A stretch of 64,000 nt of DNA from an uncultured Desulfobacterales bacterium (GCA_964573615.1 CAZNKD010000008.1:12026-76025); one strand, 5' to 3'; shown: positions 4,015-29,276, numbered from the stretch's first letter. The notes: generated by a model from the sequence alone, not told the origin. Made by a program: numbers and translations.

Positions 4015-4230
4015 TGCTTTTCAGGCGCCTCTATTTGGGATGAAAATGAATTTATTTTCACAAAAATGTGATAAAGTTGATGCCATTTTGTAAACATTGT
4101 GCTAAAAAATCAGTTTGTGAACTGAAGGCTGGGGGCCGGGCAAGGCCTCTGGCACATGGAGCGAAAAAGGCCCGTGGAGGTGTGCCTTCGCGGCAGAGTT
4201 AATAAACACTGGACAAGGAGGAAAGATTTT

Positions 4231-5643: not shown

Positions 5644-5687
5644 TGGGATCGCGGTAGCAAATACCCAGGCAAGGGCCTGAAATGAAA

Positions 5688-5723
5688 AGGGCTGCCTCCT
5701 TAGGGGGCAGCCCTCATTTTTTT
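5688..5723 (+). terminator. Intrinsic terminator after glnA, possibly bidirectional
   Basis: AGGGCTGCCTCC-TTAG-GGGGCAGCCCT followed by a T-run; convergent HIT gene ends at 5741. Confidence 0.8.
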
Positions 5724-5740
5724 CGTGTTCGGATATCTGT

Positions 5741-6085
5741 TTAGCCTGGGGGCCAGGTCATCTGCCTGCCTCCGATTATGTGCAGATGGATGTGGTAGAC
5801 CTCCTGGCCTCCATGCTTGTTGCAGTTGAAGACCAGGCGGTATCCGTCCTCGGCTATCCCTTCTTCGGCAGCTATCTTTTTGGCTGCAAGGAAGATCCTT
5901 CCTATAAGCTCGGCATGTTCATCCTCGAGGTGGTTGATGGTGGGTATGTGCTCCTTCGGGATGACAAGGATGTGCACAGGCCCCTGAGGGTTTATGTCCC
6001 TGAATGCCAGCACGTGTTCATCCTCATGGACCACGTCGGGCTTGATCTCTCCCTTTACCATCTTGCAGAACAGGCAGTCGGACAT
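5741..6085 (-). CDS. Histidine triad (HIT) nucleotide-binding protein
   Basis: MSDCLFCK start and HIHLHIIGG triad; start set at ATG 6085 behind AAGGAG. Confidence 0.92.
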   Translation of the reverse strand: MSDCLFCKMVKGEIKPDVVHEDEHVLAFRDINPQGPVHILVIPKEHIPTINHLEDEHAELIGRIFLAAKKIAAEEGIAEDGYRLVFNCNKHGGQEVYHIHLHIIGGRQMTWPPG

Positions 6086-6158
6086 GGGCAGGTTCTCCTT
6101 TTTCCGTTTTATGGTCGTCTTTTCAAAAAATAGTCTCCTGCCCCTGCCTTGGCAACCG

Positions 6159-6896
6159 TCAGCTGGTGAGCCCGATTGCATCAAACAGCATCATGAGCCC
6201 CATGAATATGAGAAGTACGTATATGGTCTTCAGATATCCGCTGTGGCTCATGCGCCCGTAGAGGGTGCTGCCTGCCAGGGTGCCGGCGGCCACAAGCGGG
6301 GCAGAGATGGCAAAGAGCTTCAGCACCGCCAGTGTGGTGAAGCCGCAAAGGGCGTGGCCTGCTGCGGCGAGGGTGCCAGTAAGGAGAAAGAAACCGGTGA
6401 GAGTCGCCTTCATCTGGTCCTTGTCCCAGTTGTTCAGGGTTACGTAGATGATGGTCGGGGGGCCGCCTGCGCTGAATGCTGCCCCGATGACGCCGGTCAG
6501 GAAACCGGCGAGTATGCCCCACGGCCTTGAAAGCCTCCGTTGCCTGGGGCGGTATGTGAGCTGAAACGTGCTATATCCTATGAGTATCAGGCCGAGAAAG
6601 AGCTTTATGGCCTGATCTTGGGCATTTTTTAGGATCTCGAGCCCTATCACTATGCCTGGAAGGCAGCCTGCAAAGAGCGGGGCGATCTTCTTGAGGTCGA
6701 GATGCCTCTTCATCTTGAGGCTCAGGATCAGGGTGATGAAGATCCCCATGAGGAGGCAGAAGGGGGTGGCCGTTCGGGCTGGCATGAAGAGGAGCAGAAG
6801 CGGCATGGCCACAAGGGCCGAGCCGAATCCGCTCAGCCCCTGTACGAATCCTGCCAGAAAGGCTATGGCCGCAACCAGCAGGAGATGGCTTTCCAT
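6159..6896 (-). CDS. Sulfite exporter TauE/SafE family membrane protein
   Basis: AGFVQGLSGFGSAL and GFLTGVIGAAFSAGGPP internal repeats, about 8 TM segments. Confidence 0.85.
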   Translation of the reverse strand: MESHLLLVAAIAFLAGFVQGLSGFGSALVAMPLLLLFMPARTATPFCLLMGIFITLILSLKMKRHLDLKKIAPLFAGCLPGIVIGLEILKNAQDQAIKLFLGLILIGYSTFQLTYRPRQRRLSRPWGILAGFLTGVIGAAFSAGGPPTIIYVTLNNWDKDQMKATLTGFFLLTGTLAAAGHALCGFTTLAVLKLFAISAPLVAAGTLAGSTLYGRMSHSGYLKTIYVLLIFMGLMMLFDAIGLTS

Positions 6897-6949
6897 AAAT
6901 AGAAAGGTCTGGTCTGTTCTCGTCCGGCCCTGTGAGGCCCTTGAGCCTG

Positions 6950-8149
6950 CTAAGAGGCGGCCTTGGCCCTCTCCACGGCCCTCTTGAACCCGTCCCTGGA
7001 GCGGGCGATTACTTCATCCTGGACACAGAAGGCCAGGCGGAAGTGGCCAGGAAGCCCGAAGCCCGTGCCTGGAACGGCAAGGATCAGCTCTTCCTGGAGG
7101 ATACGGGCAAACTCGGTATCATCCTTTATGGGGGAGACCGGGAAGAAATAGAAGGCACCCTGGGGCATGGTGAACTCCAGGCCGGCATCGGTCAGGATCT
7201 CTGCGAATAGATCACGCCTCCTTTCATAGATGGAACAGTCCACCTTGGCCTCAAGGGCGTCGGCCACAACCCGCTGCATCAGGGCCGGGGCGTTCACGAA
7301 GCCAAGGATACGGTTTGCCAGGGTCAGGGCACCAGAGAGCAGTTGACGCTCCTGTGCCTCCGGATGCACTGCCACATAGCCGATACGCTCTCCGGGGATG
7401 GACAGATCCTTGGAGAACGAGGTGGTAACGATGGTGTTTCTGTAGTGTTTCATCAGTGGCGGGACAGTGGCGCCGGTGAAGACAAGTTTCCTGTACGGCT
7501 CATCCGATACCAGGAATATGGTGTGGCCGACCTGCTCCGATGCCCTCTCCAGCAGGGCTGCCAGCTCCCTTATGGACCCTTCGTCATAGATGGCCCCTGA
7601 GGGGTTGTTGGGAGAGTTTATGAGGACCGCCTTGGTCTTTTCGTTGATTGCCTCCTCTATGGCCCCCATGTTCAGTGAGAAGTCGGGGTTGCACTCCACC
7701 GGGACCAGCCGCCCGCCGTGGTTGTCCACATAGAAGCCGTACTCCACGAAGAAGGGCCGGGGTACGATCACCTCTTCCCCGGGATTCAGGATGGCCTTGA
7801 ATATGATATTGAGGCCTCCGGCAGCACCCACCGTCATGATGACATCGTCCACCTTCGGCAGCACCTTGTGGGCCCGTTCCACCTCCTGGGCTATCCGCTG
7901 CCTCACCTGCGGGAAACCGGCGTTTGGCATGTAGGAGTGGAGTCCGGGGGTGGTATCCGTGGCCCACTTCTCCAGGGCCCTTTGAAACTCGGGCGGCGGG
8001 GCGAGGTCTGGATTTCCGAGGCTGAAGTCACACACCTTGTCCGGGCCATGCTCGGCCTTGAGACGGGCGCCCTCTTCGAACATCTTCCGTATCCAAGAAG
8101 CCCGCTCCATGAATTCCGTCATCTTGCCTGCTATAGCTGAAGTCGCCAT
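6950..8149 (-). CDS. Class I/II PLP-dependent aminotransferase (aspartate aminotransferase-like)
   Basis: [29 protein letters not shown] (PLP Lys); start set at ATG 8149. Confidence 0.92.
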
Positions 8150-8208
8150 CTGTGCCTCTTCACCTCCTGGTTTATTTTTCTCAGGAGTTAGACTATAACT
8201 TAGCTGCC

Positions 8209-8880
8209 ATGAAAGTACAGATAGCACCGTCGATTTTGTCAGCCGATTTTGCAAGGCTCGGTCAGGAGATCAGGGCCGTGGAGGAGGCCGGAGCCGATCT
8301 CATCCATGTGGATGTGATGGATGGCCGGTTCGTGCCCAACATCACCATCGGCCCCCTTGTGGTTGAGGCGATCAGGCCGGTGACGGATCTTCCTCTCGAT
8401 GTGCACCTGATGATCGTCGAGCCCGACCGGTATGTGGAATCCTTCGCCAAGGCCGGTGCAGACATCATCACCGTCCATGTGGAGGCCTGCACCCATCTCC
8501 ACAGGAGCATCCAGGGCATCAAGGCATTGGGGGTTCGGGCAGGGGCCGTTCTCAACCCGGCCACGCCCCTCGATACCATAGAATATGTCCTGGAGGATCT
8601 GGATATGGTGCTGATAATGAGTGTGAATCCGGGCTTTGGCGGGCAGCTCTTCATCCCCTCGGCCCTCGAGAAGATCAGGCGCTTGAGGCGCATGATAGAT
8701 GAGGCCGGCCTGGACGTCACCATAGAGGTGGATGGCGGGGTAAACCTGTCCACCATAAGGGATGTGGTGGCCGCAGGGGCAGATATCTGTGTGGCCGGCT
8801 CCGCTGTCTTCGGCAGGGATGACTATGCAGAGGCCATCAGGGAGCTAAAGGGTGCATGTCTTGAGCGGGCCGAGTGCTGA
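8209..8880 (+). CDS. rpe: Ribulose-phosphate 3-epimerase
   Basis: [37 protein letters not shown]. Confidence 0.97.
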
Positions 8881-8910
8881 TGCCCTTTTGTCAGAGGAAT
8901 GTAGGGGGCC

Positions 8911-9816
8911 TCAGGGGGATATCCTGAGGGAAGGCAGGTCGGGGATGGCCTTGGCCTCCATGAACCGTTCGATGCCGTCAAGGATCCTCAGGGCGCTTGC
9001 CGGCTCCACCAAAGTGGCCGTGCCCACCTGTATGGCACTGGCCCCTGCCATCAGGAACTCCACTCCGTCCTGCCAGGTGGTGATGCCGCCTATTCCTATC
9101 ACAGGGATCTGAACGCACCTCGCCACCTGCCAGACCATCCGTAGGGCCACGGGTTTTATGGCCGGACCAGAAAGGCCGCCAAAGATGTTGCCGAGCACCG
9201 GCCTTTTCCTCTCTATGTCGATGGCCATGCCCAGAAGGGTGTTGATGAGGCTGATGCCATCTGCCCCTTCGTCTTCGACTGCCCTTGCTATCTCGCACAC
9301 ATTCGTGACATTGGGGGATAGCTTTACGATTACAGGCAGATCGGTCGCCTCCTTCACCCGCCGTGTCACCTGGGCGGCAAGCCGGGCCGAGGTGCCGAAG
9401 GCAACTCCGCCCTCCTTCACGTTGGGGCAGGAGATGTTGACCTCCAGGGCGGCAATGCCTTCGACGCCTGACAGCCGCCTGGCGATCTGGCCATATTCAT
9501 CGAGGCTGCTTCCGAGGATGTTGACTATCACGGCACACCCAAGCCCTTGGAGCCAGGGCAGCATGGAGGCCAGGAACTTCTCCACGCCCACGTTTTCAAG
9601 GCCTATGGCATTGAGAAGGCCGCAGGGTGTTTCATAGACCCTGGGCGGCGGATTCCCGGCCCGGGGCTCCAGGGAGATCCCCTTCGTCACTATTCCCCCT
9701 ATGCGCTCAAGATCGAGCAGATCGGCCAGCTCGGCCCCGTAGCCGCAGGTGCCAGAGGCCAGCAGGACCGGATTTTTGAGCCTTATAAAGCCCAGGTCGG
9801 CGGTGAGATCAGTCAT
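8911..9816 (-). CDS. pyrD: Dihydroorotate dehydrogenase family 1B catalytic subunit
   Basis: NPVLLASGTCG, LNAIGLENVG, EVNISCPN, VKLSPNV, GGLSGPAIKP; adjacent to pyrK. Confidence 0.95.
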   Translation of the reverse strand: MTDLTADLGFIRLKNPVLLASGTCGYGAELADLLDLERIGGIVTKGISLEPRAGNPPPRVYETPCGLLNAIGLENVGVEKFLASMLPWLQGLGCAVIVNILGSSLDEYGQIARRLSGVEGIAALEVNISCPNVKEGGVAFGTSARLAAQVTRRVKEATDLPVIVKLSPNVTNVCEIARAVEDEGADGISLINTLLGMAIDIERKRPVLGNIFGGLSGPAIKPVALRMVWQVARCVQIPVIGIGGITTWQDGVEFLMAGASAIQVGTATLVEPASALRILDGIERFMEAKAIPDLPSLRISP

Positions 9817-9818
9817 GA

Positions 9819-10649
9819 TCAGATCCTCTCCCAGTCTATCTGAGAAGCATCGAAAACCGGGCCCTCCTTGCATACATGGAGATAGCCATCCCCTGAACCA
9901 TCCCCAGAACCGTCTCCTGAAGAGGCGGGCACGGCACAGCCGAGACAGAGGCCGCTTCCACAGGCCATGAAGGCCTCCAGGGATACCTGACACGGACAGT
10001 CATAGTGGCTTGAAAGGCGCACCACCGCCTTCAGCATGGGCACAGGGCCACAGGCCAGTATCTGGATACGCTTGCGGTCCTGCCTGTCCAGGCCGGCGAG
10101 CATCCGGTCCAGGACCTCGGTAACGAGGCCCCTGGTGCCGAGGCTGCCATCCTCCGTGGCGATGAGCAGCTCAAGCCCTGTCCTGGTGAAGGTATCGAGG
10201 CGCAGTATCTGGCCTCTGGTGATGGCGCCAAGGCAAATGATACCCCTTTGCCCCTTTAGCCTCTCTGCCAGAAAGAGCAGCGGGGCAACCCCGAGCCCAC
10301 CGCCCACCAGTACGGGGATGGCCCCATCCCGGACGTGAAAGCCCCTGCCGAGCGGGCCGAGTATCTGGATGTGGTGGCCTGGCTGCCTCCTCGAAAGTAG
10401 CATGGTACCCTTTCCCACCACGCGGTAGAGAAAATCGGCCCTTGACCGCTCCCTGTTCACCCTATGGATGGAAAGCGGCCTTCTGAGAAGGGGGTCAAGC
10501 ACCTCTTCTCCTGTAGCCCTAAGCATCGCAAACTGTCCGGGGATGGCCTGGTTTGCAAACTCTGGGGCCGCAACCTGGAGCAGGAAGGTCTCTGGTGCAA
10601 CCTGCCTGTTGGAGACTATCTCATAGATGTGATCGAAGCGTCTGGGCAT
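9819..10649 (-). CDS. pyrK: Dihydroorotate dehydrogenase electron transfer subunit
   Basis: RRPLSI FAD motif, GPLGRGF, GGGLGVAP, ACGP, CGSGLCLGC...VC [2Fe-2S] ligands. Confidence 0.93.
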   Translation of the reverse strand: MPRRFDHIYEIVSNRQVAPETFLLQVAAPEFANQAIPGQFAMLRATGEEVLDPLLRRPLSIHRVNRERSRADFLYRVVGKGTMLLSRRQPGHHIQILGPLGRGFHVRDGAIPVLVGGGLGVAPLLFLAERLKGQRGIICLGAITRGQILRLDTFTRTGLELLIATEDGSLGTRGLVTEVLDRMLAGLDRQDRKRIQILACGPVPMLKAVVRLSSHYDCPCQVSLEAFMACGSGLCLGCAVPASSGDGSGDGSGDGYLHVCKEGPVFDASQIDWERI

Positions 10650-10674
10650 TGTTCGTCTGTCGCCTGTTTCCTTG

Positions 10675-11583
10675 TCAGCCCCCCATGAAGATGGCCGCCG
10701 TGGTAGAGGTGAAAAGGATTATGCTTATCGCTGCGTTCAGCCGGAAAAAGGCGATGTTCATGCGGCTCAGATCGCTCGGGGTTATGACCCGTCTCTGAAG
10801 TACCAGCAGGATGAAGGTGATGGCCGTTCCGAGATAATAGATCCACGAAAGCCCTGCGCTAAGCCCGGCCGCCACAAAGGCGGCAAAGGCGATGGCATGA
10901 AAGAGGGAAGAGACCATGAAGGCCTTCTCCACCCCTATGGATGCAGGGATCGAGTGGAGCCCCTCCTTGCGATCGAACTCCGCATCCTGACAGGCATAGA
11001 GTATGTCGAAGCCCGCTATCCAGAACATCACCCCCAGACTCAGGAGGATGGGGGTGAGGGTTATGGAGTTCTGCACAGCTATCCATCCGGCAGTGGGTGT
11101 GATTCCTATGCCAAGGCCGAGAAAGAGGTGGCACAAGGGGGTAAAGCGCTTGGTATAGGAGTAGAAGACCAGGATGGCCAGGATGAAGGGCGAGAGCTTG
11201 AGGGCAAGGGGGGTGAGATTTGCACAGGCGAGGAAATAGACCAGGGCCGCCACTGCCACCATGATCCATGCCTCGGCCTGTCCGATTGCCCCTGTAACAA
11301 GCGGCCTGTCAGCGGTACGCGGGTTTTTGGCATCAAAGTGGTAGTCCACGATCCTGTTTACGCCCATGGCCACGGTGCGCCCCCCTACCATGGCCAGCAG
11401 GATGAAGAGGCAACTTTTGGGCTCAGGCACCCCCCTTGCCGCGAGAAATGCCCCTACGTATGCAAAGGGCAGGGCAAAGATGGTGTGTTCAAACTTGATC
11501 ATGTCCAGGAAGACCTTGATCTTCCTGAATGTGCCGGCCTTGATGTCTCTTTTTTCCTTACTTTTTTCCTTAACTGGTGACAT
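10675..11583 (-). CDS. ubiA: UbiA-family prenyltransferase (MqnP-like)
   Basis: KFEHTIFALPF, NRIVDYHFDAKNPRTADRP, DILYACQDAEFD. Confidence 0.88.
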   Translation of the reverse strand: MSPVKEKSKEKRDIKAGTFRKIKVFLDMIKFEHTIFALPFAYVGAFLAARGVPEPKSCLFILLAMVGGRTVAMGVNRIVDYHFDAKNPRTADRPLVTGAIGQAEAWIMVAVAALVYFLACANLTPLALKLSPFILAILVFYSYTKRFTPLCHLFLGLGIGITPTAGWIAVQNSITLTPILLSLGVMFWIAGFDILYACQDAEFDRKEGLHSIPASIGVEKAFMVSSLFHAIAFAAFVAAGLSAGLSWIYYLGTAITFILLVLQRRVITPSDLSRMNIAFFRLNAAISIILFTSTTAAIFMGG

Positions 11584-11679
11584 ACCGGTAAAAGGCTACG
11601 CTGTTGAGGGACTCTTTTCAAGTACAGAAGTGGGATGGAAGGATGGATGGAACATGGCGTTGCTAATGAGAATCATTTT

Positions 11680-11811
11680 TTGTGCAAATTGTGCAATCTT
11701 TTTGAAAAATATAATTCCATAAAGAATTATTTTTTCTTGATTCCTGCAATTTCCTGTGTTAAACCTCTCTTTAAGAAAAAATTCTTTGGGCAGTTTGCAC
11801 AATTTGCACAA
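11680..11811. repeat. Perfect 17-bp inverted repeat flanking a 98-bp AT-rich spacer
   Basis: TTGTGCAAATTGTGCAA at 11680-11696 and TTGCACAATTTGCACAA at 11795-11811; each arm is TTGTGCAA twice with 9-bp period. Confidence 0.95.
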
Positions 11812-11825
11812 TGAAAGCAGATAGA

Positions 11826-12341
11826 ATGTATAAAATAGCCATATTCGGCTGCGGCAATCTCCTTTTTGGTGACGATGGGGTGGGGCCTGCGGTTATAGAG
11901 GCCCTGAAAGGTCAGCCTCTGCCGGATTATGTCATGGTGGAAGATGTGGGCACTGGCATAAGGGAGAGGCTCTTTGACTATCTGCTGACGGCCGATCTCC
12001 GCCCTGATCTTATCATTATTGTGGATGCTGTGGATTTTGCCGGCATGCCGCCTGGCGAGGTCTTCGAGTTGCGGCCCAGGGATATACCTGCCCGGAAGGT
12101 ACACGATTTTTCCCTGCATCAGTTCCCTACTGTGAACATGTTGGCAGAGCTCGAGGAGGAGGCCGGGACCTGTGTGAAGATCCTGGCAGTGCAGGTCGAG
12201 TCTATCCCGGAAGAGGTAAGCCCTGGCCTGTCTCGCCCTGTTCAGGAGGCAGTGGGGCAGGTGTGTGAGATGATCTCCGAAATGGTTTGGTGCAAGAGCA
12301 ACAGAGAGGTGATCCATGATCTACGAGTTTCGTGTAATTGA
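11826..12341 (+). CDS. Hydrogenase maturation endopeptidase (HycI/HybD family)
   Basis: GCGNLLFGDDGVG, DVGT, IIIVDAVD, HDFSLH; start could be ATG 11811 or 11826. Confidence 0.9.
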   Translation: MYKIAIFGCGNLLFGDDGVGPAVIEALKGQPLPDYVMVEDVGTGIRERLFDYLLTADLRPDLIIIVDAVDFAGMPPGEVFELRPRDIPARKVHDFSLHQFPTVNMLAELEEEAGTCVKILAVQVESIPEEVSPGLSRPVQEAVGQVCEMISEMVWCKSNREVIHDLRVSCN

Positions 12342-13755
12342 TCTGGCAGAAGAGTTTGGTGTCCATAGGAATACCATCCGCAACTGGATCAAGTCTGGAA
12401 CCATTCCTGCCAAGGAGGGGCCTGGCCGGCGATATCTGATGGATTGGTCCGACTATCAGCGTCTATGTGAAAAGTTCGGCAAGACCCCGCGCATGCCCCA
12501 CACCGGCAGCAGACCTGAGCATCAGCCACAGGAAGGGCCTACCACCATAGAGCTGCAGCCGGATTCCACGCGTTTTTATCCAGATGCCACATGGGCGGAT
12601 GTATGTCTCACATGTGGCACCTGCGCCAGTGCTTGTCCTATCGCTGGTGTAGATGGCCTGGATCCAAGAAAGATCGTCCGGATGGCTCTTCTCGGTCTGG
12701 AGGATGAGCTGATGAATACGGACTGGATATGGAAATGTACCATGTGTGCCAAGTGTGAAGAGGCCTGCCCCATGGATGTCGAGATCGTCCAGCTCATCAG
12801 AAAGATCCGTTCCTTAAGGCCCAGGGACGAAGTCCCAGGCCCGATCCACAAGGGGGTGGTCAATTGTCTGGAACGGGGCAACAATCTCGGGATACCGAAG
12901 GATGATTTTCTATTCTTGTTGGAGGACCTTGGCGACGAACTGGCCCAAGAGTGTTGCCCCGGTTTTTCCACGCCGGTCGATGTGCATGGTGCGAGAATCC
13001 TGGTAACGGTCAATTCAAAGGAACCATTTGCCGAGCCCGATGACATGAAGTGGTGGTGGAAGATCTTCTATGCCGCCGGAGAATCCTGGACGATCTCCTC
13101 CGAGAACTGGGAAGGAGTCAATTGGGGGCTCTTTTCCGGTGATGACGATGCCTTGAGGACCATAGTGGGCCGTATAGTGGATAATATGAAGCGGCTCAAC
13201 TGTGAAGGATTGCTGCTTCCGGAGTGAGGTCATGCATATTTTGCAACCCGGTACGGGTTGACCAAGTGGTTCCCTGATGTCCTGGAAAAGTACAAGATCT
13301 ATTCAGTGTTCGATCTTCTGCTGGAGTATTACAACGAGGACAGGATCACTATTGACGGGGGAGTCCACAAGCAGCGCACCACCTATCATGATCCCTGCAA
13401 CTATGGCAGAAAATCCCTCAAAACCTTTGGGCATGGCTACTTTGAGGAAGGGCGTATAATCACCAAGGCCTGCGCCCCGGACTTTGTGGATATGGAACCG
13501 AATCGCCAGGGTAACTACTGCTGTGGGGCTGGCGGAGGGGCGTGGGCTATGCCCTTCAAGACAGAGCGGGTCTATTACGGCAGGATCAAGGCCCGCCAGA
13601 TTCAGGAGACCGGTGCCGAGCTGGTGATTGCTCCGTGTCATAACTGCCGTGATCAGATAAAGAAGTCCCTCAATCAGGAATATCAACTGGGCATAGAGGT
13701 GAAATACCTGTGGGAGCTGGTGGCCGATTCCCTGGTGCTGCCGGTGAAAAACTGA
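12316..13755 (+). CDS. Selenoprotein: N-terminal excisionase/MerR-like HTH fused to 2x[4Fe-4S] and CCG (HdrD/HmcF-like) domains; Sec at TGA 13225-13227
   Basis: ORFs 12316..13227 and 13258..13755 share a frame; read-through gives LLLPE-U-GHAY (family PECGH); [46 protein letters not shown]; SECIS-like hairpin follows. Confidence 0.85.
13228..13263 (+). promoter_or_regulatory. Putative bacterial SECIS element 1
   Basis: CAACCC-GGTAC-GGGTTG hairpin at 13244-13260; loop GG 23-24 nt after the UGA. Confidence 0.75.
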
Positions 13756-13825
13756 AGGTGTGCAGTACAGGGGATTCAGGTGCCAGAGATGGAGGCAAGA
13801 TCCTTATTCAAGGAGGAATTTTGAT

Positions 13826-16800
13826 ATGGCAAGCAAGGAAAGGATTGGCTCAGTCATGGTGGTAGGTGGGGGAGTGGCAGGTATTCAGGCTGCCCTCGAT
13901 CTGGCTGATTCGGGCTATTTCGTATATCTGGTGGAGCGAAGTGGTGCAATAGGCGGCGCAATGGCCCAGTTGGACAAGACCTTTCCCACCAATGATTGCG
14001 CAATGTGAATACTGGCGCCCAAGCTGGTTGAGTGCGGTCGGCACTTAAATATAAAACTTATGACACTGTGCGAGGTTATGGATGTAACCGGCACAGAGGG
14101 AGATTTCACTGTAGAGATAAGGGAGTATCCGCGCTATGTGGATCCGGACAAATGCATTGCCTGTGGCATTTGTGCGGAAAAGTGTCCCAAGAAGGTGGTG
14201 GATGATTACAATGCTGGCACTGCCAAGAGAAAAGCCATCTATGTAAAATATGCCCAGGCTGTACCCCTCAAGTATCAGATAGATCCGGAACACTGCATAA
14301 GGCTGAATAAACCGGGAAAGTGCGGCTTCTGTGAGAAGTTTTGCCCCTCAGGGGCCATAAACTTTAATGATGACGAAAAGATCCACCATATAAAAGTGGG
14401 CTCCATAATACTGGCCCCGGGTTTTGACTGCTTCGATCCAAAAGAGGCAGGGGTCTGGGGCTATGGAAGCTATCCAAATGTGATCACATCCCTCCAGCTC
14501 GAGCGCTATCTGTCCGCATCCGGCCCCACAGAGGGGCATCTGATGCGTCCTTCAGACGGCAAGCCCGTGAGGAAAATGGCATTTCTTCAGTGTGTGGGCA
14601 GCAGGGATCAGAACAGATGCAATAATGAGTATTGCTCCTCGGTCTGCTGCATGTATGCAATCAAGGAGGCCATTATAGCCAAGGATCATGTGCCCGGCCT
14701 GGATGCCACCATATTTTTCATGGACATGCGCACCTTTGGCAAGGACTTCGAGCGTTACTATGAAAATGCCAAGAGCCAGCACGGTATCCGGTTTGTGAGA
14801 TGCAGGGTTCATGGTGTCGAACCACACGGGCAGGAAGGGGATCTGCGTCTTCATTATATCAATGAAGAGGGCAGACAGATAGAAGAGTACTATGATTTGG
14901 TGGTTCTTTCTGTTGGTCTAGAGACCCCGCAACAGGTGAAGGCTCTGGCCGAAAAGATCGGAATCAAGCTTACCCCCCATAACTTCGCCGCAACAAGCAC
15001 TTTCTCTCCCGTGCTCACCTCGCGGCCAGGTGTCTTCACCTGCGGGGCCTTTGCAGGCCCAAAAGATATTCCCCAGTCTGTCATGGAGGGATCGGCAGCG
15101 GCAGCAGGTGCAGCAGATATCCTGGCACCTGCCAGATTCAGCCTGACCAGGGAGAGGAGCTTCCCGCCGGAGAGGGACATTTCCGGCCAGGAACCAAGGA
15201 TCGGGGTCTTCGTATGTCATTGCGGCTCCAATATAGCAGGAGTCGTGGATGTGGAGGAAGTGGCGGAGTACGCGGCCGGCCTTCCCGGTGTAGTGCATGT
15301 GGAGAGGAATCTCTTTACATGCTCCCAGGATACTCAGGATCTCATGCGTAAGCGTATCGAGGAGCACGGCCTCAACAGGATAGTGGTTGCTGCATGTACG
15401 CCGCGGACCCATGAGCCCCTGTTTCGCGAGACTATCAAGGCCGCTGGTCTTAATGAATATCTGTTGGAGATGGCCAACTTGAGAAACCAGGACTCCTGGG
15501 TCCATTCCGATGACCCGGCAAAGGCCACCAAGAAGGCCAAGGATCTAGTCCGCATGGCAGTTGCAAAAGTGGCCCTCCAGGAGCCTCTGAAGGCAGAAAG
15601 TGTGGCGGTCAATCCCTCTGCCCTGGTGGTGGGAGGTGGTGTGGCCGGCATGGAGAGCGCCCTGAGTCTTGCCAGACAGGGTTTTGAGGTGCATCTGGTG
15701 GAGAAGCGCCGGTATCTGGGCGGCAATGCACGCCACCTGAACCATTCCTGGACCTATGAGGATATCCCTAGGTACCTAGATGGACTCGTGAAGGAGGTCA
15801 CGGAAAATCCCTTTATCCATGTCCATATGGAATCGGAAGTGATTGAGGCCAAGGGATTTGTTGGCAACTTCCTTACCACTATTAGGAAAGGTGGCAAGAA
15901 GATAGAGATCAGCCATGGCATCGGCATAATAGCCATCGGAGGCCGTCCTTACAGGCCCAAGGGTGAATATGGCTACGGTGAGTATGAGGAGGTCTTCACC
16001 AGTATCGAGTTTGATGCAGTCAAGAAGGCCGGAGACTTCAGGGTCAAAAGAGGGCGCACCTTTGTCTTCATCCAGTGTGTAGGCTCGAGGCAAGAGGAGC
16101 GTATGTACTGCTCCAGAGTCTGTTGCACGCACTCGGTTCAAGCGGCCATTGAGCTGAAGAAGGAGGATCCCTCCAGGTCTGTATATATCCTCTATAGAGA
16201 TATGCGCACCTATGGTCAAAGGGAGTCCCTCTTCAAGGAAGCAAGGATGCTCGGCGTGGTCTTTATCAACTATGAACTGCATGGCAGGCCAAAAGTTAAA
16301 AGAAACAGAGATGGACTGACTGTAGAGGTGTGGGATCATGTGCTCCACAGGCCCATGATAATCAATACGGACATCCTGGTGCTGGCTACAGCCATACTTC
16401 CCGATCCGAAGGCTCGGGAGCTTGCAAAGCTCTACAAGGTTCCAGTGGATGGTGACGGTTTTTTCCAAGAGGCCCACGCAAAGCTGCGGCCGGTGGATTT
16501 CCCTGTTGACGGCCTTTTCATGGCTGGTCTGGCCCATTATCCCAAACCCGTGGAGGAGGCCATTGCCCAAGCCAAGGCTGCGGCAGCCAGGGCGGCTTCG
16601 GTCCTTTCCAGGAATGAGATCGTCCTGGAGGCGACCAAGGCCCAAGTGGTTCCGGAACGGTGTGATGGATGCGGACTTTGTATAGATGTGTGTCCTTATG
16701 GAGCCATTACCCTCATTGAGGGAAGTGACCAGGAAGACAATGTCTGGAAACGAGTGGAGATCAACAAGGCACAGTGCAAGGGATGTGGCCTGTGCCAGGG

Positions 16801-16885
16801 TACTTGTCCAAAGGAAGGGGTCTATGTGGCCGGTTTCTCCACAGAGCAGATCCGGGCACAGATCAAGGCAGCCCTGGCAGCTTGA
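13826..16885 (+). CDS. hdrA: Heterodisulfide reductase subunit A, long two-FAD-domain form; selenoprotein with Sec at TGA 14006-14008
   Basis: ATG 13826 behind AAGGAGG; [18 protein letters not shown] continues in frame into ORF 14060..16885; two GGGVAG and two CVGSR motifs, [10 protein letters not shown], two ferredoxin modules. Confidence 0.92.
14009..14048 (+). promoter_or_regulatory. Putative bacterial SECIS element 2
   Basis: TTGAGTGC-GGTCG-GCACTTAA 8-bp stem at 14028-14048; GGUC loop resembles the E. coli fdhF SECIS apical loop. Confidence 0.75.
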
Positions 16886-16921
16886 GGCCATGGGATAGAA
16901 TCCAAATTGGGGGATTTGATC

Positions 16922-17338
16922 ATGAGTTATGAACCAAAGATCATAGCATTCTGCTGCAACTGGTGCTCATATGCCGCAGCGGATCTGGCAGGGATCTCGC
17001 GCATGCAGTATCCGCCGAACATACGGATTATAAGGGTTATGTGCTCCGGGATGGTTCATCCAGATATGGTGCTTGAGGCCCTGGAAAAGGGCGCTGACGG
17101 TGTCATGGTCCTTGGGTGACACCTGGGGGAGTGTCATTACCAGGATGGTAATTACAAGGCTCTTTCCAGGGCAGAGATGGTGGAGGAGGTTCTGGAAGAC
17201 TTCGGTTATGAAAAGGAGCGCTTCATGATTGCTTGGTGCAGCGCTGCCGAACCTGACAAGTTTGTTGAGGCAGTCACCAGGATGGCCAAGCGGGTCAAGA
17301 CCCTGGGCCCTCACAGACACAGCCTGCAGGCAGCTTAG
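16922..17338 (+). CDS. mvhD: [2Fe-2S] subunit MvhD/FlpD; selenoprotein with Sec at TGA 17117-17119
   Basis: [38 protein letters not shown] (family GCHxGDCHY); frame stays open to TAG 17336-17338. Confidence 0.92.
17120..17152 (+). promoter_or_regulatory. Putative bacterial SECIS element 3
   Basis: ATTACCA-GGA-TGGTAAT hairpin at 17136-17152; loop GG 24-25 nt after the UGA. Confidence 0.75.
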
Positions 17339-17369
17339 GGAAGCCTGCAGGATTCCAAAGGAGCTAGAT

Positions 17370-18296
17370 ATGGCAATAACGGTTGCAGAAGAGTGGTTGA
17401 GCGCATGTTCTGGTTGTGAAATAGCCATTCTCAACATGGGCGAGAGCCTTGTAGATCTGCTCAACAGGCTTGAACTAGTCCACATGCCTGTGCTCATGGA
17501 CCATAAATATTTCGGCAGGGATGGCCTCAACAGGGAGCTGGAGATTCCTAATGCCGACATAGGGATCGTTTCTGGTGCAGTGGCCAACGAAGAGCATGTT
17601 GAGGTGCTTGAAGAGATGAGAAAAAAGTGCCGCCTCCTTATTGCCCTGGGCACCTGTGCCACGCATGGAGGAATTCCGGCCCTTATCAACTGCTGGACTA
17701 TGGAAGAGGCCTTGGAAACGATATTCCATACCCCGACGACCGATGAGTTCGGCTCCTATCCCGAAGAGGGGGTCCCGGCCATGCTGGACAGGGTCTATGC
17801 GATTGATGAAAAGGTCCATGTGGATCTGTTGATCCCTGGATGCCCTCCAAATCCTGCCCATATTGCCGGTGTGTTGGAGGCCTTGCTCGATGGAGACTCT
17901 CCTGTGCTTCCTGAAAAGAGTGTATGTGATTCCTGTCCCACGGTAAGGAAGGGAAAAGGGGAGGTGAAAGAGGTCAGGAGGTTCTTGGAAAATGCGGATT
18001 TCGTCCCATCGGAACCCCTGGACAGGATGCAGTGTCTGCTTGAGCAAGGCTTCATGTGTATGGGGCCAGTGACTGCTGCAGGTTGTGCCCATGACGGGGC
18101 CCCGCGTTGCATTGCTGCACGTGTGCCATGCAGAGGATGTTTTGGCCCGGTTCGCCATGATGGCAATCAGATGCTGGATATGATGAATGCCCTTGCCAGC
18201 AATGGGATAGACTGGAGATCGGTGGTGGACAGGCGGTCTTTGTTGAGGTTTTCGGGCGCTCATGGGCTCTTGCGGCCCCTTGGCAGGAGATCGTGA
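17370..18296 (+). CDS. mvhG: Group 3 [NiFe(Se)] hydrogenase small subunit
   Basis: ACSGCE, ALGTCATHGG, IPGCPP, CDSC, CLLEQGFMCMGPVT...C...CRGC; start set at ATG 17370 behind AAGGAG. Confidence 0.92.
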   Translation: MAITVAEEWLSACSGCEIAILNMGESLVDLLNRLELVHMPVLMDHKYFGRDGLNRELEIPNADIGIVSGAVANEEHVEVLEEMRKKCRLLIALGTCATHGGIPALINCWTMEEALETIFHTPTTDEFGSYPEEGVPAMLDRVYAIDEKVHVDLLIPGCPPNPAHIAGVLEALLDGDSPVLPEKSVCDSCPTVRKGKGEVKEVRRFLENADFVPSEPLDRMQCLLEQGFMCMGPVTAAGCAHDGAPRCIAARVPCRGCFGPVRHDGNQMLDMMNALASNGIDWRSVVDRRSLLRFSGAHGLLRPLGRRS

Positions 18297-18313
18297 CTCG
18301 GGAGGACTCTATA

Positions 18314-19759
18314 ATGGACAAGGTTATACAGATTCAGCCGGTTACCCGGATCGAGGGGCATGCCAGTATCAAGATCCATCTAGATGATGATGGCAACGTC
18401 AGGGATGCCAAACTCCATATCATGTCCTTGAGGGGCTTCGAGAAGTTCATCGAGGGCCGTCCTGCCGAGGAGGTGCCGCGTATCGTAAACAGGATCTGCG
18501 GCATATGTCCCTGGATGCACCATCTTGCCTCGTGCAAGGCCGTGGATGCATGTTTTGGGATCACACCCCCTCCGGCAGGCTGGAGGCTCAGGGAGTTGTG
18601 CCAGATTATGGCCCATATCAGCGACAAGATCCTCCATTTCTTCTTCCTGGCAGCCCCTGATTTCGTATTGGGGCCAGACAGCGACTATGCTGTAAGAAAT
18701 GTGATAGGGATAGTTAAACAGGCCCCTGAGCTGGCCTCTATGGTGGTGAAGATGCGCCAGCTCGGACAGCAGATGCTGGAGGGCTTTGCGGGCAAGGCCA
18801 TTCATCCAGTGGCTGGGGTTACCGGCGGTTTTTCAAAACCCATGACAGAGGATGAGAGGAAGGAGCTTCTGAAGGGTGCTGGGGAGCTACTGGATTTTGC
18901 TCTGTATGCCCTGGATTTTGCAAAGGAGTCTGTTTTCAGCCGGTATGATGAGATTATCAGGGAGCTTGGCACCATTGAGACAGGTTTCCTCGGGACCGTC
19001 GATAATGATGGCGCCCTACGTCTGTATGATGGGAAACTCAGGTTGATGAGGCCCGATGGCTCTATCACGGAGTTCGATCCTGAAGAATATACAGACTATA
19101 TCAGCGAACATGTAGCCCAATGGTCCTATGCCAAGATGCCCTATGCCAAGGTGTGGAATGAGGGTTTCAGCCTGGATCTCGATGCCCCCAAGGGGATTTA
19201 CAGGGCCAATACGCTTGCCAGGATCAATGTAGCCGACAAGATGGCCACTCCAAGGGCACAAGAGGCCCTGGAAGAGTTCAGAGAGAGATTTGGCCGTCCT
19301 GCCCAGAGCACACTCCTATATCATTGGGCTCGTCTTATTGAGCTTGTGTACGTGTGTGAAAGGAGTGTCGAACTTCTGAACCATCCGGAGATAACAGATC
19401 CTGAGGTGCGGACCCCGGCAACTCCGAAGGCTGGTCGGGGTGTAGGATGTGTCGAGGCCCCTAGGGGCACACTGATCCATGATTATGTCACTGATGCCAA
19501 TGGATGCATCCAGAAGGCCAACATGATCGTGGGCACTACACACAACATTGCTCCTATGAATCTGAGCGTGGCCAGCGCTGCCAAGGAACTGATAAAAAAG
19601 GGAGAGATAGATGAAGGGATTCTGAACAGGATCGAGATGGCTGTAAGGGCATACGATCCGTGAATCTCATGCGCCACTCACCGCCTGGATGGCGGAATAC
19701 CTGTGACCCTGTCCATACTGGATTCCAAGGGACATATCATCAAGGAAATGGCCGGTTAG
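18314..19759 (+). CDS. mvhA: Group 3c-type [NiFeSe] hydrogenase large subunit; Sec at TGA 19661-19663, followed by a cleavable C-terminal extension
   Basis: TRIEGH, L1 motif RICGICP, EAPRGTLIH, L2 motif RAYDP-U-ISCATH; frame open to TAG 19757-19759. Confidence 0.93.
19664..19695 (+). promoter_or_regulatory. Putative bacterial SECIS element 4
   Basis: CCGCC-TGGAT-GGCGG hairpin at 19681-19695; loop GG 24-25 nt after the UGA. Confidence 0.72.
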
Positions 19760-19778
19760 AGCCAGGAGGCAAAAAATC

Positions 19779-20024
19779 ATGTCAGCCAAAGAGAAAAAGG
19801 AGCGCAGAAAGGTGAAGGCAGAGTGCCCTAGCTGTGCCTGTGGCTATATCGGCCACATGACCGTGGATGAGCTGAGGGAGCGGGCTGTCGGTGAGGAGTT
19901 CGATGCCAGGTGCCCGGTCTGTCGCCAGATACACTTGACCCGTGAGGAGATCGAGGAGCTGGAACAGTGCAGGATCACAGAATCAGAGCAGTTTCAGCAG
20001 ATCAGAAAAGAGGCGGAGGCATAG
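19779..20024 (+). CDS. Small hypothetical protein with two CxxC motifs (putative Zn/Fe ribbon)
   Basis: 81 aa, CPSCAC and CPVC, AGGAGG RBS, 19 nt after the mvhA stop. Confidence 0.7.
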   Translation: MSAKEKKERRKVKAECPSCACGYIGHMTVDELRERAVGEEFDARCPVCRQIHLTREEIEELEQCRITESEQFQQIRKEAEA

Positions 20025-20332
20025 AAGCCCTCACCCTCCCTGCCTTTCCGTATCAGGAAGCACAGGGTTTTAGTTACAAAGCAATACAGAGAAAAATGCG
20101 GGGTCCTTCCAAGGATGCATGACTGGTTGATGCATGTCTCTTTCCCCTGCCCATAATACCTCTCTTCACATAAGAGGGAAGGACCTCGCATGATTCTCTA
20201 TTACTCCCTTGATCATGGCCTGTCATGGTGCCATCTTCCCCATGCTTTGCAGCAAAATGGTTCGTGATTAGATTGCTGGTAGGCACAGGTTCAAAAAATA
20301 GCCTATAACCAGTAAACCAGTGGAGGCAAGGC

Positions 20333-21082
20333 ATGGAACACGATATCGGCAAGGCCATGGCCTACCAGATAAAAAAGGAGATAGCGGAACGGTATTTCAG
20401 GGTCAGGAAGCTGATCGAGGACGACAGTGCCAACCTGAGACAGATGATCTCCAGACTGGAAAGGCTCTATGAACAGCTCGGTCCCCCAATGATCAGGATA
20501 TATTCTCTGCTGATGGACAGGGACCTTGCCGAGGCATTACTGAACCATCTGGGCTGGAAGGAAGGGCCTTTGCCATTCTATGACGATTATATAGTGGAGT
20601 CGGAGAGCATAAAGAGGCGCCTTTTGAAAGACATGGAGCTACATGGCTGGTTTAGCCGTTCCAAGTATACCAATTTGGTCATGGACAGTTACCAGGAGCT
20701 TTATAAAAACTATCTGAAATACCTGGATCTTTTGGAAGAGATCGAGGATGAGATGGCCGTGGTGCAAGAGGAGATAAATCAGTTCACTTCCAATTACTCC
20801 CTGGATGAGATCCTGACCTTCCTGAGCGAGCTCGACAGCATGGGGGATGTCCATGCCAGTGTCCTGGGGACCAATGTGGCGAGTGCCCAGCGATCCCAGC
20901 TCGAAAAGAAGCTCGCCCTGCCCAACCTAGACGATATAGAGGCGGCCATCCCTAGGTTTCCGAGGCTCCCAAAACCCGAGGAGATGAGGCCTGTACTGAA
21001 GAAACTGGCACATGAAGCCTGGTCCAGACACCATCAGGAGGCCGAAAGGCTGCTCAAGATAGCGGAAGAGAAAGGGGAATAG
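20333..21082 (+). CDS. Hypothetical helical/coiled-coil protein
   Basis: 249 aa open frame, GGAGG RBS, E/K/L-rich; no motif recognised. Confidence 0.75.
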   Translation: MEHDIGKAMAYQIKKEIAERYFRVRKLIEDDSANLRQMISRLERLYEQLGPPMIRIYSLLMDRDLAEALLNHLGWKEGPLPFYDDYIVESESIKRRLLKDMELHGWFSRSKYTNLVMDSYQELYKNYLKYLDLLEEIEDEMAVVQEEINQFTSNYSLDEILTFLSELDSMGDVHASVLGTNVASAQRSQLEKKLALPNLDDIEAAIPRFPRLPKPEEMRPVLKKLAHEAWSRHHQEAERLLKIAEEKGE

Positions 21083-21198
21083 ACACAAAGCTTGTGCCAC
21101 GGCGGCCGCTAACAGGCAGACGAGGTCGGCTGCCGGACGGACCCTGTCGCCGGATTTGGCATAGGTCCGCTCAAGGACTTGCGGCATCAGAATAAGGC

Positions 21199-22050
21199 AT
21201 GGAGAGATTTTATGAGCAGATAACATACCTGTTTGACAGGCTTCATGGGTTTTGGGAGCATGAAGGCCTCCATCGTAAGATCTCTGCCGGGCTAGTTTTC
21301 CTATTCCTTGCGAGCCTGCTGGCCATCGAACTCAACAGGAGAGGGATGCTTCCTGGGGATCTGGGCCTTCTCGTGCCAGAAAATCACTTTCATGCGGTTC
21401 AGGCCGCTTTCGTGGTGATACTCGTCCTAGAGGTTATCAGCCTCATATTCGTGCTCCCATGCTCTTTTTCTCGTTCGGTTGGTAAACAGTTTGAGATCCT
21501 GGCGTTGATACTCATGCGTAATGCCTTCAAGGAACTGGCCTATTTTCCAGAGCCTATAACCTTTTCAGGAAACGAGGAGAAGGTGCTGCATATCCTTGCT
21601 GACGGGTTCGGGGCCCTGCTAATTTTTGCCTTGCTTGGGCTCTATTATCTTGTCCAAAGGCCTGGAACAAAGAGGGGACGGTGGCCTGCGGAGCTCTTTG
21701 AGTTTGTTGCAGCCAAAAAGGCCATATCCATGGTGCTGCTGGTGGCTTTTATGGTTATGGGGGGCTGGAGCATGTATGCAAGTCTTGTGGGCCATGGCCA
21801 GGCATATTTTTTCCAGGATTTCTATACAGTGCTCATCATAACAGATATATTGATCGTCCTGGTGGCCCAGTACTTCAATCCTTCAGCAAGTTCGGTGTTC
21901 AGAAACTCTGGCTATGCCCTGTCCACCATGATCATCCGCATAGCCCTTGTTGCACCCGTCTATTACAATGTAGTTCTGGGTACATCTGCGGTGTTATTTG
22001 CAATCTGTCTCACCCTGATAACCTGTAGGCTTTTTGACGAAGAGTTTTAA
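21199..22050 (+). CDS. Hypothetical multi-pass membrane protein
   Basis: 283 aa with about 7 hydrophobic segments; no motif recognised. Confidence 0.7.
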   Translation: MERFYEQITYLFDRLHGFWEHEGLHRKISAGLVFLFLASLLAIELNRRGMLPGDLGLLVPENHFHAVQAAFVVILVLEVISLIFVLPCSFSRSVGKQFEILALILMRNAFKELAYFPEPITFSGNEEKVLHILADGFGALLIFALLGLYYLVQRPGTKRGRWPAELFEFVAAKKAISMVLLVAFMVMGGWSMYASLVGHGQAYFFQDFYTVLIITDILIVLVAQYFNPSASSVFRNSGYALSTMIIRIALVAPVYYNVVLGTSAVLFAICLTLITCRLFDEEF

Positions 22051-24410: not shown

Positions 24411-24486
24411 GGGGCTGTAGCTCAGTTGGGAGAGCGCGTGAATGGCATTCACGAGGTCAGCGGTTCGATCCCGCTCAGCTCCACCA
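24411..24486 (+). tRNA. tRNA-Ala(GGC)
   Basis: 76-nt cloverleaf, anticodon loop ATGGCAT (A32-U38), G3:U70 identity pair, GGTTCGA T-loop, encoded CCA. Confidence 0.98.
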
Positions 24487-24653: not shown

Positions 24654-24771
24654 CTGTCCAGAGTTTTCTGGGACCCCTTTTTCTTAAGGGAGAGCAACGG
24701 GGAGAACAATTTAATAATCAAACTTCACTTCGGCTGGCGTTGTGCTATGGCTGAGAGAGGAGGGCCATGAC

Positions 24772-25137
24772 ATGATGAGCGGTTTCGAGACCATCGTCAT
24801 GTATCTGGGGATGTCGCTGCTGGTAGTTCTGATCATGCTGGCTGTATCGGCAGCGCTGGGGCCGTTTCGCCCCAAGCCACGTAAGGCAACCACCTATGAA
24901 TGCGGTGTTCCGCTGCTGGATCCCGGGCACAAGCGCTACGCCGTCAAGTACTATCTGGTAGCCGTTCTGTTCCTGGTTTTCGATCTGGAAACCGTTCTTA
25001 TCTATCCCATTGCAGTGAAATACAAGGCCCTTGCCGCAGCCGGCTGGGGTGTTTTCTTCGAAGTCTTTATCTTTGTGGCGGTTCTTCTGGCCGGTCTCTA
25101 CTATGCCATAAAGAAGCGGGCCATAGATTGGGATTAG
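24772..25137 (+). CDS. nuoA: Complex I-like subunit A
   Basis: K...YECG, KYYLVAVLFLVFDLE, 3 TM; start at 24772 behind GAGGAGG. Confidence 0.93.
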   Translation: MMSGFETIVMYLGMSLLVVLIMLAVSAALGPFRPKPRKATTYECGVPLLDPGHKRYAVKYYLVAVLFLVFDLETVLIYPIAVKYKALAAAGWGVFFEVFIFVAVLLAGLYYAIKKRAIDWD

Positions 25138-25147
25138 GGGGCAACTT

Positions 25148-25663
25148 ATGGGACTTCAGGCTTATACAGGGCCGGGCTGGCTCTTGACCAAGGCCGAGCA
25201 GCTGATCAATTGGGGCAGGAGCAGGTCTCCCTGGCCGCTGCCCTACGGTACCGCGTGTTGCGGCATCGAGATGATGGCAGCCCTGGCTGCCAGCTATGAT
25301 ATGGCCAGGTTCGGTGCGGAGCGCCCGAGTTTTTCACCTCGCCAGGCAGACGTGCTCATAGAGGCCGGTACTATCACGAAGAAGATGGTTCCGGTCCTGC
25401 GCAGGATCTACGATCAGATGGCTGAGCCCAAATGGGTGATCGCCATGGGTGCCTGTGCCTGCACGGGGGGCGTCTTCAGGACATACTCCACCCAGCAGGG
25501 CATCAGCGAGGTGATCCCCGTGGATATCTACATCCCTGGTTGTCCGCCGAGGCCTGAAGGTCTGCTCTATGGCCTTCTCAGGCTCATGGACAAGATTCAG
25601 AAGGACCATCCCCTTTGGAAGCATCGCCAGGAAGTGGTCGAAGCATTAGGAGCAGAGTCATGA
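25148..25663 (+). CDS. nuoB: Complex I-like subunit B (N2 cluster)
   Basis: GTACCGIEMM, SPRQADV, MGACA, YIPGCPPRPE. Confidence 0.95.
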   Translation: MGLQAYTGPGWLLTKAEQLINWGRSRSPWPLPYGTACCGIEMMAALAASYDMARFGAERPSFSPRQADVLIEAGTITKKMVPVLRRIYDQMAEPKWVIAMGACACTGGVFRTYSTQQGISEVIPVDIYIPGCPPRPEGLLYGLLRLMDKIQKDHPLWKHRQEVVEALGAES

Positions 25664-26223: not shown

Positions 26224-26297
26224 TTGATGTCGGGGCCCTACAGCCCTGTTTTTCTAATACCGCTGTTCTGAAACTGGCGGTTCGAGGGAGGGAGACT

Positions 26298-27440: not shown

Positions 27441-27452
27441 GGAGGCTGACCC

Positions 27453-28493: not shown

Positions 28494-28506
28494 ACGGGAG
28501 CATGAG

Positions 28507-29250: not shown

Positions 29251-29276
29251 AGTCGAGTAACCAGCAGGAGAGATAA

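Follow-up and report, generated by a model that had tools for sequence, protein, structure and literature searches.

The 64,000-nucleotide stretch of DNA analyzed here (the window) comes from an uncultured Desulfobacterales bacterium (GCA_964573615.1, CAZNKD010000008.1:12026-76025) and carries a co-directional gene cluster on the plus strand at 11811-20024. It is highly probable that this cluster of seven genes encodes a cytoplasmic Mvh-type [NiFeSe] hydrogenase together with HdrA and an HdrD-like GlpC, and that four of the subunits contain selenocysteine (Sec) specified by UGA codons and selenocysteine insertion sequence (SECIS) hairpins. Judged by comparison with related loci, it is almost certain that each of the four in-frame TGAs encodes Sec. 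The conserved unit comprises genes for a protease, glpC, hdrA-hdrA, mvhD, mvhG, mvhA and a small open reading frame (ORF), and reading through TGA yields five proteins, four of which have an internal TGA.

In-frame TGA codons

An initial annotation of the window had proposed that the TGA triplets at 13225, 14006, 17117 and 19661 encode Sec. All four are found at these positions, in frame and in exactly the peptide contexts that were quoted. As was also foreseen there, the usual gene-calling programs break up or shorten every one of the four genes, in public records too. The ORF list of the window breaks each of them at its in-frame TGA, and on an ENA metagenome contig with an identical MvhG the gene caller reports MvhD as two pieces of 65 and 53 amino acids (aa) and MvhA as a protein of 449 aa.

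A genome collection was scanned with MvhA, which returned 80 loci from Desulfobulbales, Desulfobacterales, Desulfacinum and related metagenome-assembled genomes and isolates, the cultured Desulfopila sp. IMCC35008 and Desulfogranum marinum (L070, L026) among them, with MvhA identities of 72-86%. The loci were translated with TGA marked and the window proteins were then aligned with the translations, giving orthologs of 56-94% amino-acid identity. The codon aligned with the window TGA is itself TGA in 61 of 64 loci for glpC, 64 of 67 for hdrA, 66 of 69 for mvhD and all 80 for mvhA, where no Cys codon occurs. The three remaining loci are the same for glpC, hdrA and mvhD (L043, L053 and L069), and each has a Cys codon at all three sites. 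Amino-acid identity, computed over 63-80 loci, is 0.72 before and 0.73 after the TGA for glpC, 0.80 and 0.68 for hdrA, 0.83 and 0.66 for mvhD, and 0.75 and 0.63 for mvhA. Each frame continues with family-like sequence, as the annotation had held, and downstream identities of 0.63-0.73 are similar to the upstream ones of 0.72-0.83. Retention of a stop codon at a single site across such divergence, with the coding sequence after it conserved and Cys as its substitute, is the signature of selenocysteine.

Alignment with Cys homologs places a Cys at the TGA position in the solved structures of MvhD, MvhA and HdrA. The proposal that every TGA replaces a Cys of a family motif holds for HdrA, MvhD and MvhA; it needs correction for the HdrD-like protein, where Cys is the commonest residue in homologs but the TGA is not located at a Cys of a recognizable CCG motif. 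Sec and Cys are combined differently in locus L081, a mosaic with Ser in GlpC, Sec in HdrA, Cys in MvhD and Sec in MvhA, which indicates that switching among Sec, Cys and Ser is independent at each site. All four TGAs are also found in locus L017, from Ca. Desulfobulbus rimicarensis DR15, an organism in which all genes for selenocysteine biosynthesis have been reported (PMC7117923).

Several other explanations for TGA in these frames were considered and set aside. Reassignment of the genetic code was rejected because TGA is also the ordinary terminator of three genes of the same operon, namely glpC, hdrA and mvhG. A possible fifth recoded UGA at 16883, which is the hdrA stop codon, shares its frame with mvhD, and a weak hairpin comes after it. 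It was rejected as a recoding site and is regarded as an ordinary stop, since across 67 loci the hdrA stop alternates between TGA (41), TAA (20) and TAG (6), the frame is shared with mvhD in only 26 of them, and a Shine-Dalgarno-like GGGGGA precedes the mvhD ATG. When all TGAs of the window with a hairpin and an open frame on both sides were listed, only the four codons under study bridged coding sequence supported by Pfam, the one other case being this same hdrA stop.

SECIS-like hairpins

Sec insertion in bacteria depends on a UGA codon and an adjacent SECIS element that is read by SelB, together with Sec-tRNA(Sec). The initial annotation had described a hairpin with GG in its loop after each of the four TGAs, and such hairpins are indeed present at nucleotides (nt) 20-41, counting the U of UGA as 1; they are conserved, and the mvhA stem covaries. 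The hairpins begin 17-22 nt after the UGA and their loops begin at nt 26-31 after its U. The mvhA element sits within codons of the C-terminal extension that follows the CATH sequence of the protein.

Conservation at third codon positions is concentrated in these elements. Among loci with Sec, third-position identity reaches 0.9-1.0 within the hairpins, whereas flanking values are mostly 0.3-0.8; the corresponding values are 0.9-1.0 and 0.4-0.8 for glpC, and 0.91-1.0 and 0.3-0.5 for mvhA. Of 63 distinct Sec sequences, 61 have the same 17 nt at the hdrA hairpin, and all six consensus stem pairs of mvhD are kept in at least 64 of 65. Compensatory variants of the mvhA stem include CCACC..GGUGG, a GC to AU change found in seven distinct sequences, and UCGCC..GGCGA, a CG to UA change found in three.

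The hairpins are weakened or absent where the codon is Cys. For glpC the mean minimum free energy (MFE) is -8.6 kcal/mol over 61 distinct Sec sequences, as against -1.0, -2.2 and -1.4 kcal/mol in the three Cys loci. The mean for hdrA is -7.1 kcal/mol versus 0, -3.5 and -5.0 in the Cys loci, and that for mvhD is -4.6 kcal/mol versus -0.2, -0.2 and -0.1. The background was estimated by searching for hairpins of at least 5 base pairs with a loop of 3-7 nt that contains GG and starts at nt 24-33. The window has 2186 TGA triplets, 61 of which (2.8%) are followed by a comparable hairpin, so that four out of four would be expected by chance with a probability of about 6e-7, a figure that serves as a rough guide given that the pattern was defined post hoc.

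Cluster composition and gene identities

The features of the cluster are collected in Table 1. The maturation protease gene is the first of the conserved cluster; it overlaps the start of glpC by 26 nt and is located immediately 5' of glpC in 69 related loci. The small Cys-rich ORF at the other end matched no Pfam or NCBIfam family, and it is probably an unrecognized member of the operon.

Table 1. Genes, in-frame UGA codons and hairpins of the cluster; positions are counted from the first nucleotide of the window, and nt positions from the U of UGA
Feature	Position	Strand	Basis
Hydrogenase maturation endopeptidase (HycI/FrhD type)	11811..12341	+	Pfam HycI 6.2e-20; NCBIfam hydrog_prot 124 bits against a cutoff of 47
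GlpC/HdrD-like Fe-S oxidoreductase, predicted selenoprotein, 479 aa	12316..13755	+	Pfam HTH_17, Fer4_8, CCG
UGA, predicted Sec304 of GlpC, motif LLLPE-U-GH	13225..13227	+	TGA in 61/64 loci, Cys codon in 3; published motif 'UGH'
Putative glpC SECIS hairpin, CAACCCG-GUA-CGGGUUG, loop GUA (or GGUAC)	13244..13260 (nt 20-36)	+	Conservation, MFE
Fused HdrA-HdrA flavoprotein, predicted selenoprotein, 1019 aa	13826..16885	+	Pfam Pyr_redox_2/FAD and Fer4; PDB 8rvu_a, 5odc_A
UGA, predicted Sec61 of HdrA (CxxU), NDCAM-U-ILAPK	14006..14008	+	Aligned with second Cys of DCSMC/DCSIC in solved HdrA
Putative hdrA SECIS hairpin, GAGUGC-GGUCG-GCACUU	14030..14046 (nt 25-41)	+	Conservation, MFE
MvhD (FlpD family) iron-sulfur subunit, predicted selenoprotein, 138 aa	16922..17338	+	Pfam FlpD (PF02662) 7.2e-56; PDB 8rvu_F, 5odc_D
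UGA, predicted Sec66 of MvhD, VLG-U-HLGECHY	17117..17119	+	Aligned with first Cys of GGCHIGDCHY (8rvu_F, 5odc_D)
Putative mvhD SECIS hairpin, AUUACC-AGGAU-GGUAAU, loop AGGAU (or GGA)	17136..17152 (nt 20-36)	+	Conservation, MFE
MvhG hydrogenase small subunit, no internal TGA or Sec, 308 aa	17370..18296	+	Pfam Oxidored_q6; NCBIfam VhuG-like 218 bits, below cutoff
MvhA [NiFeSe] hydrogenase large subunit, 481 aa	18314..19759	+	Pfam NiFeSe_Hases; PDB 9sw2_F, 5odc_F, 9sfi_g
UGA, predicted Sec450 of MvhA, YDP-U-ISCATH	19661..19663	+	Aligned with first Cys of DPCLSCATH (9sw2_F, 5odc_F)
Putative mvhA SECIS hairpin, CCGCC-UGGAU-GGCGG	19681..19695 (nt 21-35)	+	Compensatory variants, conservation
Small Cys-rich ORF, 81 aa, CxxC...CxxC	19779..20024	+	Last gene of the cluster; just 3' of mvhA in 74/80 loci

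MvhD scores 187.9 bits against the Pfam FlpD model, for which the cutoff is 22.3, and aligns over its full length with solved MvhD with the Cys pattern kept. MvhA has both motifs that bind the Ni-Fe site (RxCGxCxxxH and DPUxxCxxH), as N-terminal RICGICPWMH and C-terminal DPUISCATH. Its NCBIfam matches are VhuA-like over aa 5-428 (482 bits, cutoff 800) and VhuU-like over aa 431-458 (41 bits, cutoff 70), so that MvhA is, by sequence, the equivalent of VhuA and VhuU in one chain.

The HdrA-HdrA protein has the expected HdrA features, namely a thioredoxin-reductase-like FAD domain with a CxxU pair, an N-terminal Fe-S domain, and ferredoxin domains both inserted and at the C-terminus. These are arranged in tandem, with an FAD domain at aa 10-430 containing C58-x-x-U61, an HdrA N-terminal domain at aa 452-628, then another FAD domain and, at the C-terminus, the ferredoxin domain. 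Every part of 8rvu_a and 5odc_A is matched in the fusion, in three stretches and in an order that is permuted and duplicated. The NCBIfam HdrA2 score of the protein is 982 bits, under the cutoff of 1100. The lowest NCBIfam E-values of the cluster proteins are for VhuA and VhuU, VhuD, VhuG and HdrA2, all under the equivalog cutoffs, and the proteins are therefore classed as bacterial relatives rather than members of these archaeal equivalog families.

The best match among the loci is L001, with 85-94% amino-acid identity. Positions 11680-20020 of the window align with 3379-11707 of this locus at 75.5% nucleotide identity, and the alignment is limited to the seven-gene cluster. The neighboring genes ubiA, pyrK/pyrD and ubiX/ubiD and the two ORFs at 20333-22050 are common to none of the 80 loci. 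The lack of synteny in the flanks relative to the closest locus suggests that the cluster moves as a unit.

Alternative explanations

A number of observations weigh against the proposed selenoprotein cluster. ARAGORN found no tRNA-Sec in the 64 kb window, which appears to derive from a metagenome contig, only a tRNA-Ala, and Pfam scans of about 55 of its ORFs found no SelA, SelB or SelD. Rfam gave no SECIS match either with gathering thresholds over the whole window or in E-value mode over 12000-20200, only a tRNA and chance-level matches, although this null result is uninformative for hairpins of this kind. The cluster proteins remain under the NCBIfam equivalog cutoffs of the archaeal VhuA, VhuD, VhuG and HdrA families. 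Selenium incorporation in the source organism is deduced from sequence comparison rather than biochemistry, and the physiological acceptor and electron bifurcation are suggested only by homology to archaeal Mvh-Hdr.

One alternative is that the four genes are pseudogenes, or are truly truncated or split at nonsense codons with the downstream frames untranslated. Gene callers do split or truncate them and no Sec machinery is seen within the window, yet 61-80 loci of diverged species retain the TGA with the in-frame downstream protein conserved, relatives have Cys codons in its place, and truncation would remove from MvhA the Cys and His that complete its C-terminal DPUxxCxxH Ni-Fe motif. This explanation is already contradicted by the data and deserves hardly any credence. 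Alternatively, the UGA codons could be read through but not as Sec, with Cys, Trp or Gly inserted by near-cognate suppression or under an altered code. Low-level read-through of UGA with Cys or Trp occurs in bacteria under selenium limitation, and the Sec machinery was, again, not observed in the window. Such decoding is nevertheless very improbable here, as glpC, hdrA and mvhG of the same operon end at TGA, the hdrA stop varies among TGA, TAA and TAG, and conserved GG-loop SECIS hairpins that decay in Cys loci are specific to SelB-dependent decoding.

An operon that encodes Sec by descent could also be non-functional in this particular genome, having been gained horizontally by an organism without a Sec system or having outlasted the loss of that system. 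The restriction of alignable sequence to 11680-20020, with flanks that are not syntenic with the closest locus, would fit such a history, and horizontal transfer of the operon is proposed in the section of PMC1794560 that treats it. None of the four UGAs or hairpins is damaged, however, and they match the Sec-locus consensus exactly or almost exactly, whereas decay of the kind found in the Cys loci would be expected once selection had ceased. This scenario is accordingly considered very improbable, and functional Sec encoding at all four UGAs remains the favored interpretation.

The GlpC/HdrD-like subunit

GlpC consists of an HTH_17 domain, an HdrC-like domain with two [4Fe-4S] clusters, a degenerate CCG-like domain with the predicted Sec304 and a canonical CCG domain. 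Residues 95-205 match HdrC chains (4e-18) as well as Pfam Fer4_8 and Fer4_17. The lowest NCBIfam E-values are for the HdrD-type proteins HmcF, TmcB and DsrK over aa 92-476, with scores under the curated cutoffs. An HdrD would have two CCG domains, each with the pattern C...CCG...CxxC, whereas in GlpC only aa 356-449 correspond to the CCG model and to the CCG domain at the C-terminal end of HdrB.

Attempts to place the Sec on a CCG motif by sequence failed with each of the approaches used. The Pfam CCG model did not assign it, alignment of the two GlpC halves with hhalign detected no internal repeat, and PDB profile searches aligned only from after the Sec. An AlphaFold (AF2) model of the Cys homolog P0003, with a mean confidence (pLDDT) of 84.6, superposes on the whole of HdrB, LutA and EtfD, which indicates that the N-terminal half of GlpC keeps the fold. 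Read from the repeated strand-helix pattern of this model, the N-terminal half would have S, NW and U-x-x-A in place of the canonical C, CC and C-x-x-C, and in the domain bearing the Sec (approximately aa 215-325; 12950-13290) four of the five cysteines that would bind the cluster appear to be lost.

The residue at the Sec position could be read in 116 of the 120 homologs listed and is Cys in 91, Ser in 16 and another residue in 9; all 116 are full length and therefore without Sec. Two cases were checked in the DNA, with Ser (TCT) in L081 (6001-7425) and Ile (ATC) in L082 (1116-2603). The excisionase-type helix-turn-helix of the HTH_17 family is fused at the N-terminus of GlpC (aa 1-55; 12316-12480), and almost all of the 120 homologs listed have it. 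Its residues H17, R18, N19, T20, R22, N23 and W24 are invariant in 41 sequences.

These features lead to a tentative proposal, which is on the whole doubtful. The Sec of GlpC may be the sole surviving ligand position of a degenerate CCG-like domain rather than a standard CCG Fe-S ligand. Because the first CCG-like domain is degenerate, the enzyme could work with a single non-cubane [4Fe-4S] cluster and a selenol or thiol nucleophile instead of the two clusters of HdrB. The residue would be dispensable in some lineages, as where Ser or Ile takes its place, and HTH_17 might be a redox-responsive DNA-binding or docking module. No paper with both 'HdrD' and 'helix-turn-helix' came up in a full-text literature search, and the published passages that deal with the operon discuss neither the Sec of GlpC as a non-CCG ligand nor a role for HTH_17.

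Proposed mechanism

Each Sec would be inserted at its in-frame UGA under the direction of the SECIS hairpin, which would be read by SelB with Sec-tRNA(Sec). By analogy with characterized family members, MvhA and MvhG would oxidize H2 at the Ni-Fe site, where Sec450 would serve as a Ni ligand as it does in other [NiFeSe] enzymes. Electrons would then pass from MvhG to MvhD and on to the FAD of HdrA, with the C58/U61 pair lying near the flavin. HdrA probably bifurcates them, sending one stream to a low-potential acceptor (ferredoxin) and the other via GlpC to a disulfide acceptor of high potential, for which DsrC is the usual candidate in sulfate reducers. The protease encoded upstream would remove the C-terminal extension of MvhA after CATH, the same stretch that also encodes the mvhA SECIS.

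Rest of the window

Two plus-strand ORFs located 3' of the cluster, at 20333-21082 (249 aa) and 21199-22050 (283 aa), have no Pfam family and no counterpart in the 80 loci. A single tRNA-Ala(GGC) gene is found at 24411-24486. A complex I operon at 24742-35286 on the plus strand has the order nuoA-B-C-D-H-I-J-K-L-M-N, without nuoE, F and G between nuoD and nuoH; it is the 11-subunit form without the NADH-oxidizing module, with nuoM (32171-33739) assigned by position only. An apparent read-through frame at 29277-32108 within this operon was rejected, as it reflects only that nuoJ, nuoK and nuoL share one frame. At the other end of the window (1-5643) there is a nitrogen-regulation cluster of amt, which is cut by the window start, glnB (P-II), glnD and glnA.

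Comparison with known systems

The operon itself has been described before, in Deltaproteobacteria that reduce sulfate. Zhang, Romero, Salinas and Gladyshev (Genome Biol 2006, PMC1794560) reported, in their account of it, a five-gene operon glpC-hdrA-frhD-frhG-frhA in Syntrophobacter fumaroxidans, where it is present in three copies, and in Desulfotalea psychrophila. GlpC, HdrA, FrhD and FrhA are selenoproteins according to that account, hdrA is fused to a second hdrA, and a core of four genes is proposed to have been acquired from Sec-decoding archaea. The relevant passage of a 2026 review (PMC13188914) uses the term 'four-selenoprotein-gene operon' and gives the GlpC motif as "UGH". Measured against these descriptions, the window cluster has the same gene order on one strand, the same four Sec families, the HdrA-HdrA fusion, the UGH motif of GlpC and SECIS elements within the coding sequence. 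Nothing essential differs from what they set out, and the window copy comes from an uncultured relative of the Desulfobacterales/Desulfobulbales. The initial annotation had presented the operon as one of hidden selenoproteins, a novelty that does not survive this comparison: since the operon was published in 2006 with Sec in the same four proteins, the finding is right but already known.

The window thus adds one more uncultured Desulfobacterales/Desulfobulbales-like carrier to the many that have the published four-selenoprotein Mvh/Hdr operon. Its chief value is one of annotation, since without Sec-aware gene calling a complete cytoplasmic H2-oxidizing and probably electron-bifurcating complex would be scored as broken. 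The independent switching between Sec and Cys (or Ser in GlpC), with matching decay of the SECIS, illustrates the interconversion of Sec and Cys, a phenomenon that has already been described. The published descriptions of the operon make no mention, in the passages concerned, of the flanking protease, the small Cys-rich ORF or the HTH_17 domain of GlpC (PMC1794560, PMC13188914).

A further point of comparison is the archaeal Vhu/Mvh-HdrABC system, represented by Methanothermococcus thermolithotrophicus (5ODC) and by the Hdr-Vhu-Fwd complex of Methanococcus maripaludis (PMC13518236). MvhA, MvhG, MvhD and HdrA are homologous to their archaeal counterparts over the full length, and Sec occurs at the same type of position as in HdrA Sec197, VhuU and VhuD. 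Sec197 of M. maripaludis HdrA is part of a Cys-Sec pair between the FAD and the A3 [4Fe-4S] cluster (PMC13518236), and Sec61 of the window HdrA is judged to correspond to it from the shared CxxU motif rather than from alignment. The two systems differ in that a single HdrD-like GlpC with a degenerate first CCG domain replaces HdrB and HdrC in the window, HdrA is duplicated and fused, and VhuA and VhuU are joined in a single chain. The SECIS elements lie in the coding sequence in the window but in the 3' untranslated region in archaea. The substrate CoM-S-S-CoB is not expected in bacteria, and the NCBIfam cutoffs of the archaeal equivalogs are not reached.

Among sulfate reducers, Desulfobacterium autotrophicum HRM2 has Sec-containing HdrA1, HdrD4 and MvhD and a cytoplasmic MvhA2DG (Strittmatter et al. 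2009, PMC2702500). It resembles the window in having a cytoplasmic Sec-containing Mvh hydrogenase clustered with a Sec-containing HdrA, and a Sec-containing HdrD-type protein in the same genome (PMC2702500). The gene neighborhood is different, with HysAB in the HRM2 cluster. GlpC finally shares an HdrC-like ferredoxin domain and the CCG domain with HmcF, TmcB and DsrK, the HdrD-type subunits of sulfate respiration, but scores far under their equivalog cutoffs (200 versus 750 bits) and has the N-terminal HTH_17 and the predicted Sec in addition. The role of this Sec and of the helix-turn-helix domain is where the remaining interest of the cluster lies.

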